Positions 1,004 through 48,663 of a stretch of DNA of 52,407 nt are shown in pieces. Both the position numbers and the translations under genes were made by a program. Each line of letters begins with the position of its first letter. Positions within the stretch are counted from its first letter, which is position 1. The notes under the pieces were generated by a model. The model did no database searches. It had not been told where the DNA came from and saw nothing but the letters and a program-made list of their open reading frames with translations. Origin of the DNA: a virus; UHGV virus genome UHGV-0113213, one strand, 5' to 3'.

Positions 1004-4000
1004 TGACCACGATCCAGAGCTTCTTGTGACAAGGACTAGGCCTGGTCTCCTTATTGCCGCTGATGATGTATTTGTGTAGTTTTCTGTAACAGTTACGGAA
1101 ACATGCTGAGATGTAATACCTGAAACACAATGAACGGCAACGTCTGACTTGTGGGGCGTTGATGCCGCCCTTTCTATGTCTATAGTCTTTGAATTTCCGT
1201 TAATGTTTATGGTTACGTTAATGCGTCCCGACTGGTTATATGTATAGTAAGCAAGGTTATAAGGTATCATTACATAAACCGTTTTCGATAAAGCAGATGA
1301 TGATGAATCCCAATAATTTTTGGTTACACTCCTGCTACCTGACCCTGATTGCGCAGGGAATGTTGCCTCTGGAATTACTGACATACTCGCAACGTCACCA
1401 ACAAAGGATGTAGCTTCTACAGTGCCTCTGAATTTACCGTCAGTCGCGTAAACAGTACCGTTAAACACACCAGAATTAGCGTATACCGTGCCGCGTACTG
1501 TAACGTTGTTAAATGTAGCCCAGCCATCTTTAACTATTGCCCAACCTTGATCGCTACCGTTCCAATTGTATGACGTTATGACATTGCCTATTTTTGCATT
1601 GTCGATTGAACCGTCTTTAATAAACGCTTCGCGCACATACATTGCGCCGTTAGTGACATAGAAAGGTGTCTGATATGTGCCGTTTGCGGCAGTCATTAAC
1701 ACGAATCGGTCAACAAGGAAAATGCACTGCGATTGAACATCAGTACCGCTGCCAGTGAGGCCAAGTGACATTCCTGTTGCGTATTTCATACCGTTGTTAT
1801 CAGTGGCAATCTTGATTGAATATGACGCATCAACGTTACCTTTAAAATCGGTTAACGCTTTCGATGTTGTCTCGATCGCTGTTGTGTTTCCGTTAACGGT
1901 CACTTTCAATTGATCAATTTTTGTCGATAATGCCTCATCTGCCGTTGACATGGCCTGCGACCATTCCGTGATGCTTGAGTTTACATCGTCGAAAGATGCC
2001 GATATTTGAACAAATTTTTCAGCACTTGATGCCTCGTGAGTTGCGAGCGCCGTTGATATATCTGTTATTTTTGCTGAAATGTTTTCATTAATATTGGCTT
2101 CAAGTGATGCTATAGCCTCCGCGCGGGCCTGTGTTTCGTCTGCTATTGCTGTGTCAATCCTTGCTATTTCCGCTTTTGTTTTTATCTGGCCTTTCCTGTA
2201 TTTTGCCTCAATAACGGTGCTCATCTTGCTTTGCGCTATTGAGTTGTTGATAAGTGCAATCGAGGCGTTTTGCAGACTTGCTTTCGCCTGTTCTATCTTG
2301 TCACTGTTTTTATCAACATCACTTTCAACAGAACCAAGCTCCGCACTGATGCCTGATATTGCCTGGGCGCGAGCGCTTGATTCGTCGGCGATAGCTTGAT
2401 CAAGGCGGCTAACACTGGCATTTGTGCTATTTTCAAGCGTTGTTAAATCAGCTTTAACATCTGTTATTGCGTCGCTTCTTGCCTGCGTTTCATCTGATAT
2501 TGCTTTATCGAGACGAGAAACGCTCGCGTCAGTTTTGTTTTCCAGGCTGCTGATACTGGCGTTAACGTTGCTTATAGCCTCCGTTCTAGCCTGCGTTTCG
2601 GTTGCGATTGCTTTGTCAACGCGGGCGATTTCCCCTTTGGTGCTGGAGTCCATTGCGTTCATTTCTGCTGTGATGGTTTCCAGTGATTCCGCTGTCGCTT
2701 TTTTCTCATCTGCGATAACGTTGTCGATACGGTCAATCTGTGCCTTTGTTTCGTTGCGACCTTTCTTATATTGAGCGGTAAGAGTAACCCGCGTGTTAGT
2801 TTGAGCAAGCGAGTTGTTGATCAGAGCAAGCGAAGCGTTTTGTAAACTTGCTTTTGTCTGTGCCAGTTCGTTATTAACGTTTTCGTTTGATACCTCTAAT
2901 GAGTCTATTCTTACCTCATGTTTGCCTATTCCATCGGCGTTTTCTTCGACTTTTTTATAAAGGTCTTCGGTGTCTTTTTTAAGTGTATCTGTATCAGCTT
3001 TAAGGCCATCTGTAGCTGTTTTAAGGTCGGCGGTTGCTGTTTTAAGGTCGGCGGTTGCGCTTTCTATAATATCAGTGCGATCACCAAGATCCTTAATATC
3101 ACTTACCAATTCCTTAAATTGCTCTGAGTTCATCACGTCTTTGGTGACATAGTCGCTGATTTCATCGAAGTTTTCAGTTGGCTTACCTGACGCCTCAACG
3201 AAGTCTGACACGCCAAAGGCATTGCGCGTGCGCACATAAACGTAATAAGTATGGCCCGTGTTCATTCCACCGAACGTCCACTGATACCCGCGCCCGGTAA
3301 ACTGCGCAGACGTGGTTATTTTTGCAGGATCTGTAATCTGGTTTTTCCCTGCATAGTAGAACTCATACGCTGTATCAGTTGTTAGCGTTGTTTTGCTTAT
3401 CGGGTACACTGTAGCCTGAAATACACCTGGAACCCAGTTAACGCCTATTGGCGAGGCTGGTGCACCAATAACAAGATCAACAATACTTTCAGCGCCCTTC
3501 ATGCCAGTATCATTTCTTCCGCGAACGCCTAACGAATACGCGCCAGCGTCGATGCCATAAAAATCATAACTGTATTTCGTTGTTTCGTAGCTTTTAACAA
3601 CCGCACCATCTGTGTTATATATGCGGATCTCAAAGGTCATGCGATGTGTTGTTGTCTGTGTCTCCCATGTTGCGCGGCATTGAACCGTTTCAGATCCAAT
3701 GTTTACCACCTTCAGATTTTCAATGCTCGGCACGCGGAAGTGATTAAGCGTGTCGTTGTTGATTTCAAATATAGCGCCTTCATCGACTACTGCTTGTTTG
3801 TTCGGGTCATGTTGCGCTGCTTCGATGGTGTACACGCTGTTGTTTTCAGTTTCTGCTACGCTGATGATTCGACATAAAACGGGTTTTGCAGATTCGGTTG
3901 ATACAGCAAAAACAGTACCGTTCCGAATCCATGCCGGGGCTGCTGCCAGTGTGATTTTGTTCCCGTTAACACCAGTGATCTGATGTTTTTTAAATTTGCC

Positions 4001-24604: not shown

Positions 24605-25189
24605 TCAGCCTCGTTTAAAGCTCATTACACGCGGTACAAGCGCCTCTTTTGCTTTAGGCTTACGTTTGCCTTTCTTGGCTGGTTTTTTCTCTTCTTTCGG
24701 CTCCTCTGCCTGCTCTACTGCCTGTTCTGCTGCATCAGTCGCCTTTTCCGCCTGCTCCAATGCCTGCTCAACGACTTCAGCGGCCTGCATAGCTGCCAAC
24801 TGTGCTTCGTTAGATTCAGCCAGGATCGGGAAGAATGCATCAAAGATGCGGCCCACCATGTAAGCATATGTCTCGTTTGCCGGATGGCTTGGTTCTGTAG
24901 TCGCTACGACACCGACATCACTTAAAACGTGGAATGTAGTGTGAGCCGCTTCATGTACCAGCGTACCAAGCTCATTATCGAATACTGCGATCACGTAGAA
25001 GTTACCGCCTTTCTCGCCAGTGCAAGTAAGTGTTAAACCTCCTGCCAGTTCAAAATCAGGTTCGATTGGGATCCCTGCCTTTTCGCAAAATTCATAGAAC
25101 ATGTCACGAGTCGGGCAGAAGAAAACTGTTGTATGCTCGAAGAGCGGGACTTTGAATTGAGGCAACTTAATGCCTTTACCCTTAGCCAT
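24605..25189 (-). CDS. putative zinc metallopeptidase-like protein (HEAAHTTFH = HExxHxxxH), acidic linker, Lys-rich tail
   Basis: ImmA/IrrE-type HExxHxxxH signature. C-terminus KKPAKKGKRKPKAKE. Confidence 0.45.
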   Translation of the reverse strand: MAKGKGIKLPQFKVPLFEHTTVFFCPTRDMFYEFCEKAGIPIEPDFELAGGLTLTCTGEKGGNFYVIAVFDNELGTLVHEAAHTTFHVLSDVGVVATTEPSHPANETYAYMVGRIFDAFFPILAESNEAQLAAMQAAEVVEQALEQAEKATDAAEQAVEQAEEPKEEKKPAKKGKRKPKAKEALVPRVMSFKRG

Positions 25190-42510: not shown

Positions 42511-43158
42511 TTATGGCAGGTTTACGATCTTCGCATCAACCACCACGCCTATAATTTTTGATTCTGGATTCATAGGGATTGGCGGATACAGCGGATTGAG
42601 CGAACGTAAAAGCCTTTGACCTCCATCAATAATCAACTGTTTAAACGTCGGTATCTGCCCTTCCTCAAGCTGGGCTATAACCAGTTTGCCGTCAATAGCT
42701 GGCGCGTGCGGGTCCACAAGTATCATCGTCCCCGCCGGGATGCTCAACCCCTGCGGCGCGTTCATTGATTCACCTTTGGCAACCAGCCAGTAACTGTCAT
42801 CTGAACAAATAACGCTAGTCGTAACGTGTCGTAATGCTGAACGCCTTGCGTCATCCATATTGTTTACTGTGTCCTTCCAGTCAATAACCGGGTAACTACC
42901 TAAATCACGCGGCGGCACGGCCTGAAGTGTATTAGAAACAGAATCATCAATGACCATGCCATCATGTGTAACAGTAAACTGCCGACGACCAAGCTCGCGC
43001 ATAATCCGCGCAATATCTTCAAGATTTGGCTCTCGGCGACCGTTCAGCCAGTGTGACAGGCCGCCTTTAGTTATCCCCATACGATCCGCGAGTGAATCCT
43101 GGCTCATGCCCTGCGCCCGCATGAGCTGCTTTGCTAAGTCATACCATTTTGTTTTCAT
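42511..43158 (-). CDS. cI: CI-like repressor (HTH_XRE + S24 LexA-like peptidase)
   Basis: N-terminal HTH (QDSLADRMGITKGGLSHWLNG); C-terminal SMN...G and K dyad consistent with the S24 family. Confidence 0.8.
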   Translation of the reverse strand: MKTKWYDLAKQLMRAQGMSQDSLADRMGITKGGLSHWLNGRREPNLEDIARIMRELGRRQFTVTHDGMVIDDSVSNTLQAVPPRDLGSYPVIDWKDTVNNMDDARRSALRHVTTSVICSDDSYWLVAKGESMNAPQGLSIPAGTMILVDPHAPAIDGKLVIAQLEEGQIPTFKQLIIDGGQRLLRSLNPLYPPIPMNPESKIIGVVVDAKIVNLP

Positions 43159-43189
43159 GTCGCTACCCTATAACCTCAAAAAGTTTGAT

Positions 43190-43282
43190 GCAAGTCACAA
43201 AACGTGTATTTTAAGCCTTGATCTTAAAATTCCATTTTGTAAACTTGCAGACAAGGTAAGGCCATACTTGCAAAGACGCAAG
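43190..43282. promoter_or_regulatory. OR-like region: pR candidate TTGATC-N16-TAAACT with operator-like palindromes CTTGCAGACAAG and CTTGCAAAGACGCAAG; motif copy TCCATTTTGTAAAC
   Basis: The CTTGC/GCAAG half-site recurs four times between cI and the first rightward gene. Confidence 0.4.
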
Positions 43283-43321
43283 GAAAAAGATAACGGAAGG
43301 CACAAAAAGGCACTTACCTTA

Positions 43322-43355
43322 TGCTCTTTAAAAATCCGGTGTCGCTGCGAAGCGA
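43322..43355 (+). promoter_or_regulatory. nutR candidate: boxA TGCTCTTTAAAAATCCGG plus boxB hairpin TCGCTGCGAAGCGA
   Basis: Consensus boxA (CGCTCTTTA-like), with a stem-loop 3 nt downstream. Confidence 0.55.
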
Positions 43356-43463
43356 AAAACAAATATCACGCAACGGCGGGATCTGTTGAGCGGTCAGTCA
43401 CTGCTATCTAATGCTAATGGGATGCCCGCCCGCGCGTTCACTCTAACCATAGGAGAAAATGCG

Positions 43464-43730
43464 ATGAGTATAAACATGATTAGTAAAGCATGGAACGTAA
43501 AACTTAATAGCCCGATTCAAAAACTTGTCTTAATGGCTCTGGCTGAAAAGGCAGATAACAAAGGACGGGTACATGATGCATCACGCAAAGAAGTAGCCGC
43601 AATGTGTGAACTTCCTGTTCATACGGTACATGATGCCTTCGCCGCGTTAATGGATAAAGGATTTGTTTGTCGTCTTGATGCATTCAGTGATGTCTATGTA
43701 GTGATGTTGCCGGGGGGGGATGATCTATGA
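43464..43730 (+). CDS. winged-HTH protein resembling the N-terminal DNA-binding domain of replication protein O
   Basis: KLVLMALAEKADNKGRVHDASRKEVAAMCELPVHTVHDAF resembles lambda O residues ~50-100. RBS AGGAGAAAATGCG. Confidence 0.45.
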   Translation: MSINMISKAWNVKLNSPIQKLVLMALAEKADNKGRVHDASRKEVAAMCELPVHTVHDAFAALMDKGFVCRLDAFSDVYVVMLPGGDDL

Positions 43731-44773
43731 AGTGGTTTAAGCATGACAGCGATGCGAACCGCGATGAAAAACTTCAAAACGTTTTGTTAGATTATGGCCT
43801 GGAAGGGTACGGGCTTTATTGGTATTGCCTCGAACTAATAACTTATGACGTAGATCAGCACAATCTGAATTTTGACCTACGACATGACGCGAGAATCATT
43901 GCGCGAAACGTCGGATCGACTGAAAAACGTATAGAAGAAATGATGAAATACTTCATCGAAATTGGTTTGTTTGAATGTTCTCAAGGCCACATAACTTGTT
44001 TAAAGTTATTGAAAAGGCTTGATCAATCAATGACTTCTAAAAGCGCGTACAGGGCCGCCATAAACACAGCTAAGGAGCAATTAAAATTAGAAAAGTTAAT
44101 CAATCCAACACAAAAAGGTCATGATAGGGTCATGACCGGGTCAGGAAAGGGTCATGAATTAGAAGTAGAAGAAGAAAGAGAAAAAGATATATACACTTCG
44201 TGTATTGTCGAAAATGAACAAAAAATGTTCAATCGGGATGGCGTAAACGAAGCGGCATTGCGTTGTCTTTCCTTCTACAACGACAAGGCAGGATGCAAAT
44301 GTCGTGATGCGAAGCCATTCATAGAACTACTGACAGAAACAAAAACACGTAAAGCATATACTGAGGAAGAAATCACATTAGTAATCGAGTGGGCTTTAAC
44401 GCAATGGCGTAGCCGTGGTGGAACACCTAAGCCTATCAACATTTGCCGGGTAACTAAATTTGATGGGTATCTGGCTGATGCTGAACAATGGCGCAAACTG
44501 TCAGCCACTGCAAACGCTGCCGATGTGGTGGAAGCATTTAACAGCACGTTTGACGGTCTGTTACCACATGCCGAACTGGATCGGGATCTTGAACGTAAGA
44601 TCTATGCGTTCACTGACTACCTGAAAGACAAAAGCATCACTGGCTTTATTGCTTACTTTGAGGCGTTCAAAAACACGGCTTCAGATTTTTACTTCGGCAA
44701 TGGCTTTACTGCGACACTGGATTTTCTACTTAAACCAAAAACGCTACGTGATACACGATGTGGCGCTCTTTGA
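43727..44773 (+). CDS. replisome organiser / replication initiation protein (Phage_rep_org_N-like)
   Basis: MKWFKHDSDANRDEKL N-terminus; iterons embedded in the linker region. Confidence 0.55.
   Translation: MKWFKHDSDANRDEKLQNVLLDYGLEGYGLYWYCLELITYDVDQHNLNFDLRHDARIIARNVGSTEKRIEEMMKYFIEIGLFECSQGHITCLKLLKRLDQSMTSKSAYRAAINTAKEQLKLEKLINPTQKGHDRVMTGSGKGHELEVEEEREKDIYTSCIVENEQKMFNRDGVNEAALRCLSFYNDKAGCKCRDAKPFIELLTETKTRKAYTEEEITLVIEWALTQWRSRGGTPKPINICRVTKFDGYLADAEQWRKLSATANAADVVEAFNSTFDGLLPHAELDRDLERKIYAFTDYLKDKSITGFIAYFEAFKNTASDFYFGNGFTATLDFLLKPKTLRDTRCGAL
44117..44200. promoter_or_regulatory. candidate replication origin: four GGTCATGA iterons at 11-bp spacing, then an AT/purine-rich tract
   Basis: Iterons at 44117, 44128, 44139 (degenerate) and 44150; followed by agaagtagaagaagaaagagaaaaagatatata. 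Confidence 0.5.
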
Positions 44774-44905
44774 CCAATCACGATCCGCAAAAATCCAAAA
44801 TTACCCACAAACAACCTCACCAGCTAGCTAAATCGCATGTGGTGCTACACTTGCTTACCTTTTTGCGATTAGCTCGTTATAGAGCGTTACAGAGAGGATT
44901 TTAAA

Positions 44906-45007
44906 ATGGACGGTAAACACGTTTTCGCCCTGGCTTTTGCCATCGCTGCGGCAATCGCTGTTAACGTCGCCTTGTTCGGCGGATTGTATCTGCTAGTTAA
45001 TCCATAA
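44906..45007 (+). CDS. 33 aa hydrophobic peptide MDGKHVFALAFAIAAAIAVNVALFGGLYLLVNP
   Basis: RBS AGAGGA; fills an intergenic gap. Confidence 0.35.
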   Translation: MDGKHVFALAFAIAAAIAVNVALFGGLYLLVNP

Positions 45008-45147
45008 CTACCCTTCTACCTTAAAAATCGAAAATTAGCCACATGATTGCGCTTCTGGCGCAAAAAAGACACTGCAACCTTACAAGTGGGTTACGCGGTG
45101 GGTTTTTGCGTTGTAGCGCGTCTGAGGCGTTTTAAGGAGTTGGATCG

Positions 45148-46071
45148 ATGCGCAAGTTAACACATGATGAACAGGTTGCGGCTATCGCTAAGGTTAATCA
45201 TGATGTCGAAGTGCTTGGGGAAATTGTCAATAACAGGACAAAAGTATCCTGCCGCTGCAAGGTTTGCAGTCACGAATGGTCGGCTAGACCTTACAATCTT
45301 AAAAGCGGTTACGGCTGCCCGAAATGCGCCGGAAAGATGAAATTATCACACGAAGAACAGGTTGCCGCTATCGAGAAGGTTAATTCTGATGTCGAAGTGA
45401 TTGGCGAAATAATAAACGGCGATACAAAAGCATTATGCCGCTGCAAAGTTTGTAATCACGAATGGTCGGCTAAACCTAACAACCTAAAAAACGGGCGCGG
45501 CTGCCCGAAATGTAAAGGTTTAAAAATCGCACAAAGACGAACATTATCACACGAAGAACATTTATCCGCTATCACTAAGGTAAATCATGATATTGAAGTA
45601 TTGGGAGAAATAATAAACGATAGGACAAAAGTATTATGTCGATGCAAGGTTTGTGATCATAAGTGGTCGCCTAGACCTTATGCTATTAAAAGCGGGCAAG
45701 GCTGCCCGAAATGTGCGAAACACGGTTTTTTGTCACACAATTTCGGCAAACTTTACATCATGGTTGATGATCCTGAAGTGCCTACACAAATGAAAATCGG
45801 CGTAAGCGTTAATGAGAACAAGCGAAGAAATCGGGTATTAAAAAGCGCACATAAATCAGGCGTTAGAATCCCTGATTTATGTGTCGTGAAAACGTTAGAA
45901 GGTCCAACCGAAAATATCCATGAATTAGAAAGCACGATGCATAAATATTTCAGCAATTATAAAATTAACTTTCCTGTAAAATTTGATGGCAGTAATGAGT
46001 TTTTCTATTACAGGCCGGAAGTATTCGACATGGTAGAAGAAGCATATAAAGAGATTGTTTGCTGTCAATGA
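45148..46071 (+). CDS. protein with 3 tandem zinc-ribbon repeats plus C-terminal GIY-YIG/T5orf172-like domain
   Basis: Three copies of CRCKVCxHEWS..P...K.G.GCPKC; C-terminus GKLYIMVDD...MKIGVS. Confidence 0.5.
   Translation: MRKLTHDEQVAAIAKVNHDVEVLGEIVNNRTKVSCRCKVCSHEWSARPYNLKSGYGCPKCAGKMKLSHEEQVAAIEKVNSDVEVIGEIINGDTKALCRCKVCNHEWSAKPNNLKNGRGCPKCKGLKIAQRRTLSHEEHLSAITKVNHDIEVLGEIINDRTKVLCRCKVCDHKWSPRPYAIKSGQGCPKCAKHGFLSHNFGKLYIMVDDPEVPTQMKIGVSVNENKRRNRVLKSAHKSGVRIPDLCVVKTLEGPTENIHELESTMHKYFSNYKINFPVKFDGSNEFFYYRPEVFDMVEEAYKEIVCCQ
45157..45729. repeat. three ~190-200 bp tandem repeats (zinc-ribbon units)
   Basis: Protein-level triplication mirrored in the DNA. Confidence 0.6.
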
Positions 46072-46104: not shown

Positions 46105-47223
46105 ATGTCACAAAGAAAGATAAGCGATGAGCAATTGATCGCTGAATATAACAACGGTTTAACGTACAAGCAGATCGCTGAAAAATATGGCATGTCAAAA
46201 CGCAACGTCGAGCGCCTGGGCGCAAAGCTGGCGAAACGCGGTTTAATATCCACGCGTCGCGCGCCGGGTTTTGGCGTCAATGGCGAGTCATTGCTAGTTG
46301 ATAAGGATGGCAATGTGATTATGCGCTGGATTAAAACAGCCCGTGATCGCGATGAAATGGAAAGGCTAATGCAAGCGGCTTGCGATGCTTTCACGGAAGA
46401 CATGCCACGCGCTGAGGCTGTGCCAGTGCCGGAAATTGATTTCCAAAAAAGCCTGGCTCTTTATCCGGTATTCGATCTGCATATCGGTGCGCTTGCGCAT
46501 AAAGCTGAATGCGGTGAGAGCTACGACACCGGGATCGCCGAACGTGTGTTAAATGACTTCTTCGACTACGCGGTGGGCGCTGCGCCAATGTCTGAAAAGG
46601 CTGTTTTGTTGTTAGGAGGTGATATTCTTCACACTGACGGCCTGTTACCAGTGACGCCATCAAGCAATCACGTCCTGGATTGCGATTCACGCTACGCAAA
46701 ACTGGTTTACGTGGCGATCCGGTCGGTCCGGCGTGCGGTCGGGAAGATGTTACTAAATCATAAGTATGTCGAGATCCAGACATTATCCGGTAATCACGAC
46801 CAATCAGGGATGATCTGGCTACGTGCGGCGCTGGCGGCTTTTTACGAAGATGAACCGCGCGTAACTGTTGATGTGTCCCCTGCTATCGTTCACCACACAC
46901 AGTACGGCAAAACATTCCTTGCTTACCACCACGGACACACCATCAAAAAACCAGAAAATTTGTTGTCTGCCTGCGTCTCTGACTGGCGGGAGGATTTCGG
47001 CAAGTCGTCGGCGGTTTACGCTCATTGCGGACACTGGCATCACCAACGGCTGATTGAATCATCGTTAGGCGTTGTTGAGTATCACGGCACGTTAGCTGGC
47101 AAAGACGCTTATTCAACAAATGGCGGCTGGCGGTCGCGTCGGCTGGCTGCGGTAATAATTTACAGTCCTGATCATGGGGAAATCGGGCGCTTTGTTTATT
47201 ACCCTGAATATTCCATTTTGTAA
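46105..47223 (+). CDS. HTH plus calcineurin-like metallophosphoesterase fusion protein
   Basis: N-terminal HTH (LTYKQIAEKYGMSKRNVERL). Phosphoesterase motifs DLHIG, GGDILH, GNHD, HHGH, GHWHH. Confidence 0.5.
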   Translation: MSQRKISDEQLIAEYNNGLTYKQIAEKYGMSKRNVERLGAKLAKRGLISTRRAPGFGVNGESLLVDKDGNVIMRWIKTARDRDEMERLMQAACDAFTEDMPRAEAVPVPEIDFQKSLALYPVFDLHIGALAHKAECGESYDTGIAERVLNDFFDYAVGAAPMSEKAVLLLGGDILHTDGLLPVTPSSNHVLDCDSRYAKLVYVAIRSVRRAVGKMLLNHKYVEIQTLSGNHDQSGMIWLRAALAAFYEDEPRVTVDVSPAIVHHTQYGKTFLAYHHGHTIKKPENLLSACVSDWREDFGKSSAVYAHCGHWHHQRLIESSLGVVEYHGTLAGKDAYSTNGGWRSRRLAAVIIYSPDHGEIGRFVYYPEYSIL

Positions 47224-47241: not shown

Positions 47242-48663
47242 ATGATAACCGAACAAGTAAACTCATTGCGGCAAGAAAGAGAATCTGCGGTTATCGGTGG
47301 CCTGCTGTTAGGTGGGCTTACTCCTAACGCGCAAGACGTTCTCGCTACTCTAGATCCTGAAGTATTCACTATTCCGCTATATAAGCGGGCTTTTGAAATT
47401 ATCCGTGCGCAAGCCAGAAACAGAAATCTCATCGACGCGTTACTGGTTGGTGATGAGATTGGTAATGAAAACTTTGTGCCGCTAATGCAAACGGCGCGAT
47501 CGTGCCCTTCTGCTGCCAACCTGAAGGGGTACGCACAGTTACTACGTGAAGAGCACCAACGTCGGCAGATGTTGGAACTCATCGACGATATGCGCTACAA
47601 ACTGGAAACTGGGACACTTGAGGTCGTCAAAGAGACGATGAAAGATTTTGATTCCCGGTATTCAAAATTAAAGGTAACAAAAGATCAGATTATCCCGGTG
47701 CTGTTGCGAGATGCTGTCCAGGAATACACGGAAGTGCTAAGTAAACGCATGGAGTGTGGCGTGAACTCTGACAACATCAAAACAGGGATTGACCCACTCG
47801 ACGAAATGTTAGGCGGCATTAACGCTACTGATATGGTGCTTATCGCCGGACGCCCAGGGTCTGGTAAATCGGCGTTGGCGTTGGCAATTGCCCGCGCGGC
47901 GGCTGAACGCCAATACCCTGGCGGAGAAGGTCAGCGGGTAGGCGTTTTGCTGTTCACGCTTGAAATGTCGCTCGATCAGATGACTGAACGCGCTATCGCT
48001 GGCGCAGGGAACTTGTCAACGGATTGCCTACGTAATCCGGTAAAACTGGATGACGAAGGGTGGGCGCACGTTGCCCAGGGGATGAGCGCACTTGCCGATC
48101 TCGACGTGTGGATTGTTGACGCATCACAGTTAACGGTCGAGGAAATACGCGCCACCACGGAACGGATGAAACAGGACCATCCTAACCTGGGAATGGTAAT
48201 GATTGACTACATCGGGTTAATGAAGCTGGCTAAGGCCGAACGTCATGATCTCGCCGTAGGGCAATTGTCGTGGTCATTGAAAATGATGGCGAAAGAGTTG
48301 CGCGTGCCAGTGGCGGCGCTGGCGCAATTATCCCGCCGCGTTGAAGAACGACCGAACAAGCGCCCTAACAATTCTGATCTGCGTGATTCCGGCAATCTGG
48401 AACAAGACGCAGACAGGATCATCATGGTCTACCGCGACGGCTACTACAACGAACAATCAGTTGCACGCGAGTACATGGAGATCATCGTTTCAAAAAACCG
48501 TCACGGGAAAACGGGTACTGTTTACCAGCGGTTTGATGATAACGGCAACATTTTACCATGCGACCAGGCCCGCGCGGCGTCCGCGTGTATCCAGTCAATG
48601 CAACAACGTCAGGCGACAAGCCGATTCTCCCAGCGAAATAACCAGACAAACTCATCTTTTTAA
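47242..48663 (+). CDS. replicative DNA helicase (DnaB family)
   Basis: Walker A GRPGSGKSALAL, LFTLEMS, DLRDSG..EQDAD. Confidence 0.85.
   Translation: MITEQVNSLRQERESAVIGGLLLGGLTPNAQDVLATLDPEVFTIPLYKRAFEIIRAQARNRNLIDALLVGDEIGNENFVPLMQTARSCPSAANLKGYAQLLREEHQRRQMLELIDDMRYKLETGTLEVVKETMKDFDSRYSKLKVTKDQIIPVLLRDAVQEYTEVLSKRMECGVNSDNIKTGIDPLDEMLGGINATDMVLIAGRPGSGKSALALAIARAAAERQYPGGEGQRVGVLLFTLEMSLDQMTERAIAGAGNLSTDCLRNPVKLDDEGWAHVAQGMSALADLDVWIVDASQLTVEEIRATTERMKQDHPNLGMVMIDYIGLMKLAKAERHDLAVGQLSWSLKMMAKELRVPVAALAQLSRRVEERPNKRPNNSDLRDSGNLEQDADRIIMVYRDGYYNEQSVAREYMEIIVSKNRHGKTGTVYQRFDDNGNILPCDQARAASACIQSMQQRQATSRFSQRNNQTNSSF

Follow-up and report, generated by a model that had tools for sequence, protein, structure and literature searches.

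A candidate replication origin of short, helically phased iterons within the Lin1244_N initiator gene of an mEpimmI-group coliphage

An origin of replication (ori) inside the gene of its own initiator is a known design, represented by the phages SPP1, P22 and lambda. The replisome organiser G38P of SPP1 has its binding sites in its own gene 38 (oriL), with an AT-rich region adjacent. In P22 a replication origin is annotated inside gene 18 (gene nucleotides 353-497), just upstream of the DnaB-like gene 12. In lambda four annotated iterons occupy nucleotides 349-433 of the O gene and are followed by 41 nucleotides of 78% AT and 73% purine; this ori-in-O layout was used for comparison (PMC7466680). 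The subject of the present report is an array of four short direct repeats in the viral genome UHGV-0113213, a stretch of 52,407 nucleotides which was analyzed at its full length and is called the window throughout. The array is located at 44117-44157 within the gene of a 348-amino-acid initiator-like protein carrying an N-terminal domain of the Lin1244_N family (DUF4373, PF14297). As judged from its layout and from comparison with relatives, the array is in all probability the vegetative replication origin of the phage, situated within the linker of the gene that encodes the phage's own initiator; binding of the array and origin activity are predictions of this reading.

The window was assigned to the mEpimmI (mEp021) group of coliphages, which is reportedly as common in human gut samples as lambdoid phages are (PMC11893012). 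The module is carried by 28 of 5,426 complete E. coli genomes. The mEpimmI genome paper mentions neither an origin nor iterons (PMC11893012). No earlier description of the origin or of iterons in this family was found in the literature on mEp021 replication, Lin1244/DUF4373 and replisome-organiser iterons, and no function of Lin1244_N/DUF4373/PF14297 is described in the searchable literature. The association of Lin1244_N genes with phased arrays in their own linker appears to be undescribed so far. The new features are the Lin1244_N/DUF4373 initiator family, the very short iterons phased at one helical turn and their overlay on coding sequence in three frames.

Anatomy of the array and comparison with described origins

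The initiator gene comprises the following features:

43727-44773, + strand: initiator/replisome-organiser gene, 348 amino acids, which holds the candidate origin (open reading frame, Pfam, PHROG)
43727-44116, + strand: region coding for the Lin1244_N winged-helix N-terminal domain (amino acids 1-130), the putative iteron binder
44117-44124, + strand: iteron 1, GGTCATGA, read GGT CAT GA (G-H-D)
44128-44135, + strand: iteron 2, GGTCATGA inside the 10-bp palindrome GGTCATGACC, read GTC ATG A (V-M-T)
44139-44146, + strand: iteron 3, GGTCAGGA, read G-TCA-GGA (S-G)
44150-44157, + strand: iteron 4, GGTCATGA, read GGT CAT GA (G-H-E), in the frame of copy 1
44158-44190, + strand: purine-rich AT tract, candidate DNA-unwinding element, 33 bp, 76% AT, 85% purine
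44191-44207, + strand: 17-nucleotide island ATACACTTCGTGTATTG, a palindrome with 6-bp arms and a 3-nucleotide loop
44243-44773, + strand: conserved C-terminal half with a TIGR02220-like middle and a P22-gp18-like tail, the putative helicase recruiter

Direct reading of the sequence revealed three copies of GGTCATGA and one copy of GGTCAGGA at steps of 11, 11 and 11 bp, which amounts to one helical turn per copy. Tandem Repeats Finder reported the array at 44113-44158 with a period of 11 and 4.2 copies. An earlier examination of the letters of the window (the sequence-only reading) had claimed four copies in exact 11-bp phase, and both results bear this out. On the + strand just two further exact copies of GGTCATGA exist in the whole 52,407 bases. 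The core hexamer TCATGA, itself a 6-bp palindrome, occurs 22 times in the window, three times inside 34 bp at the array. To assess chance occurrence, the window was scanned for sites where four 8-mers stand in phase with a period of 9-24 and give 22 or more of 24 matches, and 300 composition-matched (Markov-1) random windows served as a control. The array was the sole site in the real window, and no site was found in the 300 random ones. Self-similarity at 10/11 bp peaks window-wide at 44115. Tandem Repeats Finder gave further matches in the window at 3015-3058 (21 bp × 2.1, 100% identity) and 24705-24766 (21 bp × 3).

The AT- and purine-rich tract which had been claimed 3' of the iterons is confirmed by both its composition and its duplex stability. 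A 40-bp segment beginning at 44154 belongs to the least stable 0.15% of all 40-bp segments of the window. The length of the tract differs among close relatives by in-frame insertions or deletions of 6-9 bp, and the arrays of the relatives likewise precede an equivalent purine-rich AT tract.

The array corresponds to nucleotides 391-434 of the 1047 nucleotides of the gene (relative position 0.37) and lies in the linker between the Lin1244_N domain (amino acids 3-87) and the conserved C-terminal half, which starts at approximately amino acid 173. The Pfam match to Lin1244_N scored 43.8 bits (cutoff 25) over profile positions 1-88 of 95. Lin1244_N was the only Pfam N-terminal domain of the initiator, which matched neither lambda O/HTH_36 nor, at E≤0.01, the SPP1 G38P-type domain Phage_rep_org_N. 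Residues 263-348 align with residues 182-271 of P22 gp18 (38% identity, E=6e-15), and residues 174-254 with the TIGR02220 domain of a Vibrio homologue (E=2e-5). The protein matched the unannotated family phrog_20981 and, more weakly, "replication initiation O-like" families; the PHROG "replisome organizer" families matched the homologue of Vibrio phage PP270 alone. The name given by the Prokaryotic Genome Annotation Pipeline is only "Lin1244/Lin1753 domain-containing protein". When the full-length initiator was compared by sequence with the PDB, no match was significant, and NCBIfam gave no match for the initiator or for the 88-amino-acid protein encoded upstream of it.

The locus resembles lambda in several respects. 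In both phages the repeats lie in the central part of the initiator gene, between a DNA-binding N-terminal half and a helicase-recruiting C-terminal half (relative position 0.37 here and 0.39 in lambda), and four direct repeats precede an AT-rich tract which is 33-41 bp long and biased towards purines. The array of the window also lies in the early rightward operon beside the immunity region. Thus, the parallel to ori-in-O drawn by the sequence-only reading holds for position, array and AT tract, that is, for the layout. It does not extend to the iterons themselves, which are 7-8-bp cores every 11 bp in the window and 18-bp dyads every 20-24 bp (about two turns) in lambda. Moreover, the N-terminal domain is Lin1244_N instead of lambda O/HTH_36, the module lacks a P-type loader and encodes its own DnaB helicase, and the copies overlap coding sequence in three frames with one copy forced to be degenerate.

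Like P22, the locus has an initiator gene with an origin inside it (annotated in P22, a candidate here) and a DnaB-type helicase gene downstream, and the last 86 residues of its initiator are homologous to the C-terminus of gp18 from end to end. The two phages are unrelated, however, in their N-terminal DNA-binding domains and in their iterons, and in the window two extra genes separate initiator and helicase. The likeness to SPP1 is one of concept alone, namely organiser sites within the organiser's own gene beside an AT-rich region. There is no sequence or Pfam relationship between the initiators, and the repeat architecture differs.

Selection on the repeats within coding sequence

A step of 11 bp is not divisible by 3, so that the copies of the array are distributed over three reading frames. 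At the third position an exact copy would read TCA-TGA and thus contain an in-frame stop, so that one substitution is forced and copy 3 is imperfect. The copy at 44139 is indeed degenerate, as first noted from the letters, but this is not decay: the substitution is imposed by the reading frame. Other lineages avoid the third-frame stop through other single substitutions: mEp515 has TCA-AGA, L046 and L047 have TCA-TGG and TCA-TGT, and the copy of Vibrio phage PP270 reads TCA-TGC.

Synonymous sites were compared in the window and 26 independent non-mEp lineages, 27 lineages in all. The codon preceding the motif histidine has T as third base in all 27 lineages, though the residue is S, N, H, R or G. 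The histidine is invariably encoded by CAT (background usage 0.58) and the motif valine or isoleucine by GTC/ATC (background 0.10 and 0.22). Outside the motif, the neighbouring aspartate codon is GAC in 17 lineages versus GAT in 10, and the spacer codon takes ten forms. The nominal log10 P of -45 for this test treats the lineages as independent and overstates the significance. Therefore, the argument rests on the contrast between frozen motif sites and saturated adjacent sites. Judged by these codons, the repeats are evidently under selection at the DNA level rather than at the protein level.

The same comparison bears on the possibility that the array encodes a repeated peptide (HD..VM) of a flexible linker and has no role at the DNA level. 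Many homologues do show an H-D-x-V-M motif at the protein level, but one DNA heptamer encodes different residues depending on the copy (G/S/N-H-D, V/I-M-x and S-G), and the 11-bp period does not fit a codon repeat. The invariant synonymous sites of the motif and the variable residue before the histidine, with its fixed third base, effectively refute this explanation, to which we assign next to no probability.

Family-wide layout, module exchange and the likely binder

Among viral contigs and annotated phages the exact TCATGA motif is nearly confined to the linker of Lin1244_N initiator genes. A pair of TCATGA motifs exactly 11 bp apart was present in 51 of 59 distinct genes. The consensus consists of two RTCATGA motifs, each with 4 bases after it, then a degenerate copy in the third frame, one more copy and finally AAGATAAGATTAGATTAGATAAGAAT. 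A scan covering one genome per bacterial species yielded 41 loci from many phyla, in which the N-terminal domain is followed by an array phased at 10/11 bp and then by a purine-rich AT tract. The iterons of the relatives belong to the classes TCATGA, CCATGG and TCCCGAC, with 2 to approximately 11 copies per array; the third class appears as (G/C)TCC(C/G)GAC at 11-bp steps, and L110 has GTCAGGA as a further class. When 34 loci were each ranked internally by 10/11-bp self-similarity, the linker came within the top 1% in 31 and was the maximum of its locus in 25. The family members L117, L119 and L120 showed no obvious array. Lin1244_N relatives are present in phages and prophages of many phyla. 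With these data it is reasonably likely that Lin1244_N/DUF4373 proteins constitute an initiator class of many phyla, with linker origins made of 7-8-bp sites that are phased at one helical turn and spread over all three frames, and with iteron "alleles" (TCATGA, CCATGG, TCCCGAC) which co-evolve with the domain.

The most extreme array found belongs to L126, a Geobacteraceae contig. Here, approximately 11 (G/C)TCC(C/G)GACA copies at strict 11-bp steps are located 3' of the Lin1244_N domain at gene nucleotides ~350-480. This iteron class was also observed in contigs of Methylotenera, Planctomycetota, Microbacteriaceae and Bacteroidota.

The copy numbers and classes have to be considered together with a hairpin, since copies 1 and 2 can pair into a stem of 8 bp. 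With the T-run that comes after it on the minus strand, this stem would be an antisense terminator; alternatively, it would act as an mRNA hairpin which modulates translation between the N-terminal and the C-terminal domain. A terminator-like match does exist on the minus strand (44137-44117), the predicted hairpins have a dG of approximately -11 to -15 kcal/mol with z-scores of -2.4 to -3.1, and the palindromic core is kept in the CCATGG variant. Such a hairpin needs two copies, however, whereas 4-5 copies and about 11 in L126 were found in strict 10/11-bp register, some of them unable to pair, and the TCCCGAC class consists mainly of direct, not inverted, repeats. A search of 43100-45200 gave no Rfam match at E≤1, and apart from a weak 9-of-12 consensus match no antisense promoter was evident. 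We regard a hairpin function as very improbable. The terminator-like hairpin on the minus strand was rejected as a by-product of the palindromic cores.

Within the mEpimmI group the phages mEp021, mEp010 and mEp013 possess an unrelated HTH_36-type (lambda-O-like) N-terminal half, while the C-terminal half is approximately 94% identical to the window protein in mEp010 and mEp021. At the equivalent gene position these three phages (L003-L005, 4624-4711) carry four dyad-symmetric repeats of 22-23 bp, GGTAGTGACACAGAGTCACCGGG, with an AT-rich tract after them. The arrangement in Stenotrophomonas phage BUCT708 obeys the same logic with yet another array. Since N-terminal half and iterons differ together and the C-terminal half is shared, DNA-binding domain and array apparently swap as one unit. 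As far as the sequences tell, such a joint exchange would be expected for an initiator with its cognate origin. For the half of the mEpimmI group with this type of module, the GGTAGTGACACAGAGTCACCGGG array inside the O-like gene represents a candidate origin of lambda style which is not annotated.

The 17-nucleotide island 3' of the AT tract recurs identically (ATACACNNCGTGTATTG) in the lambda-type sibling modules L003-L005 at ~4754, in another reading frame. It is translated as IYTSCIV in the window and as NTLRVLE in the mEp021 type; its arms are invariant and its loop base is variable. Because of this identity in both modules, the different frames and the invariant arms, the island was classified as a DNA-level element. 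It is missing in L049 and L095, which both keep the array and a longer purine-rich tract. Consequently, the palindrome was rejected as an obligatory third origin element comparable to the inverted repeat of lambda. The island may serve as a junction for recombination or as an accessory origin element that is conserved but dispensable.

These observations raise the question of whether the array as a whole is only a recombination junction, or a hotspot of module shuffling, that plays no part in replication. Breakpoints do cluster at the array: homology to H82 starts at query nucleotide 430, and that to H80 and H81 ends at nucleotide 461. Homology of the mEp010 type resumes at the 17-nucleotide island, breakpoints of E. 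coli prophages flank the AT tract and the island, and the 17-mer, read in different frames, is common to unrelated modules. The ori-specific and the helicase-loader-specific halves of O in lambdoid phages themselves meet in the ori region, so that breakpoints at the array are expected for an origin as well. A junction explains the 17-mer at best, but not phased iterons which differ by module type and co-vary with the N-terminal domain. Hence, a mere junction seems highly unlikely.

The sequence-only reading had also proposed the 88-amino-acid winged-helix protein encoded upstream of the initiator as a candidate for binding the iterons. This is disfavoured, as the small protein does not track the iterons. 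In MagusPhagus the N-terminal domain is 99% identical to that of the window, the small protein only 62%, and the iterons are identical (TCATGA). In the E. coli prophage L094 the N-terminal domain is 78% and the small protein 86% identical, and the array consists of five CCATG(G/A/T) copies at 11 bp. More distant phages with TCATGA motifs have unrelated genes upstream of the initiator, and the C-terminal domains of TCATGA-bearing genes vary among TIGR02220/DnaD-like, lambda-O-like and gp18-like types. Lin1244_N is thus the sole constant partner of the array, and from these alignments the initiator's own Lin1244_N domain is the likely binder of the iterons. Two weakly discriminating N-domain positions, 22 and 104, were found between the TCATGA and TCCCGAC classes, with only 6 sequences in the latter.

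Mobile endonuclease domains apparently invade the origin-bearing linker, since T5orf172/GIY-YIG-like domains are inserted inside the linkers of Lin1244_N initiators in L086 (gene nucleotides ~340-640), L101, P0023 and P0027. The insertion point lies between the N-terminal domain and the array.

Origin function, an alternative role and the gene neighbourhood

Selection at the DNA level, the lambda-style arrays of the siblings, the matching layout and the gp18-like C-terminus together with a helicase gene support the reading of the array as an origin. What would be expected at the sequence level of an origin in an initiator gene is present, and in combination with the comparative data this favours the candidate origin first proposed from the letters. 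Two points weigh against it. DNA-level selection shows that the DNA sequence matters, not origin function as such, and the translationally coupled 88-amino-acid O-type winged-helix protein is an additional DNA-binding player in the module. Hence, the array might instead be a regulatory binding site, used for autoregulation or roadblock of the initiator operon or by another phage or host factor, with the origin located elsewhere. The window holds no other candidate combining iterons and AT tract, however. In the siblings precisely this place is taken by a canonical lambda-style array of four iterons, an easily melted tract is always found 3' of the array, and conservation of the motif across phyla with unrelated hosts speaks against a host factor. 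We consider a purely regulatory site unlikely.

For the array as an origin, we infer a series of steps comprising binding, oligomerisation, unwinding, helicase recruitment and finally origin activity. Early rightward transcription would express the initiator, and its Lin1244_N winged-helix domains would occupy the four RTCATGA sites phased at one turn (44117-44157). With every site on the same side of the helix, a cooperative complex similar to the O-some is expected. This oligomer would destabilise the adjacent 33-bp purine-rich AT tract (44158-44190), and the P22-gp18-like C-terminus would then recruit the phage DnaB-type helicase (47242-48663). GC skew was rejected as a diagnostic of the origin, because its cumulative minimum at 42-44 kb coincides with the switch from leftward to rightward transcription.

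If this is correct, Lin1244_N/DUF4373, a domain of unknown function, gains a role in origin recognition, and the replication origin is located for the mEpimmI coliphages, where it is undescribed. Origins would become predictable in hundreds to thousands of phages and prophages by a searchable signature of N-terminal domain, 11-bp array and purine-rich AT tract. The array would constitute a cis-acting DNA code laid over coding sequence, at a cost visible in one imperfect copy and with several independent solutions. The natural TCATGA/CCATGG pair in near-identical coliphages makes specificity swaps testable and offers access to the evolution of origin specificity under coding constraint.

The genes surrounding the initiator gene are:

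42511-43158, - strand: cI-type repressor gene, upstream of the initiator
43464-43730, + strand: gene of the 88-amino-acid winged-helix protein (phrog_4617 "replication initiation protein", profile positions 1-89 of 223)
45148-46071, + strand: Zn-ribbon/T5orf172 endonuclease-like gene, 307 amino acids (PHROG "endonuclease")
46105-47223, + strand: helix-turn-helix-metallophosphatase gene, 372 amino acids (phrog_704 "DNA repair exonuclease")
47242-48663, + strand: DnaB-type replicative helicase gene (Pfam DnaB_C 1.8e-75, DnaB N-terminal domain 6e-12)

The 88-amino-acid protein is a stand-alone copy of an O-type N-terminal winged helix. The stop codon of its gene overlaps the start codon of the initiator gene (ATGA), which indicates translational coupling. 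All mEpimmI relatives have it in the form of diverged alleles (identity 62% in MagusPhagus and 37% in mEp010), and it could be a truncated paralogue of the initiator with a regulatory role.

The DnaB-type helicase gene is located downstream of, but not adjacent to, the initiator gene, with two genes between them. No canonical helicase loader was evident in the replication module. The 372-amino-acid protein combines an N-terminal helix-turn-helix with metallophosphatase-like motifs, and its gene is kept in front of the helicase gene in all mEpimmI relatives. The 307-amino-acid protein consists of three tandem Zn-ribbon (DUF4379/CapR) repeats, encoded by DNA repeats of 186-201 nucleotides, and a T5orf172 domain. 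The slot between initiator and helicase is hypervariable: it is empty in MagusPhagus, encodes a 495-amino-acid Zn-ribbon protein in mEp021 and holds other genes together with HNH endonucleases in mEp515 and mEp010. This suggests that the slot serves as a landing site for homing-endonuclease-like genes.
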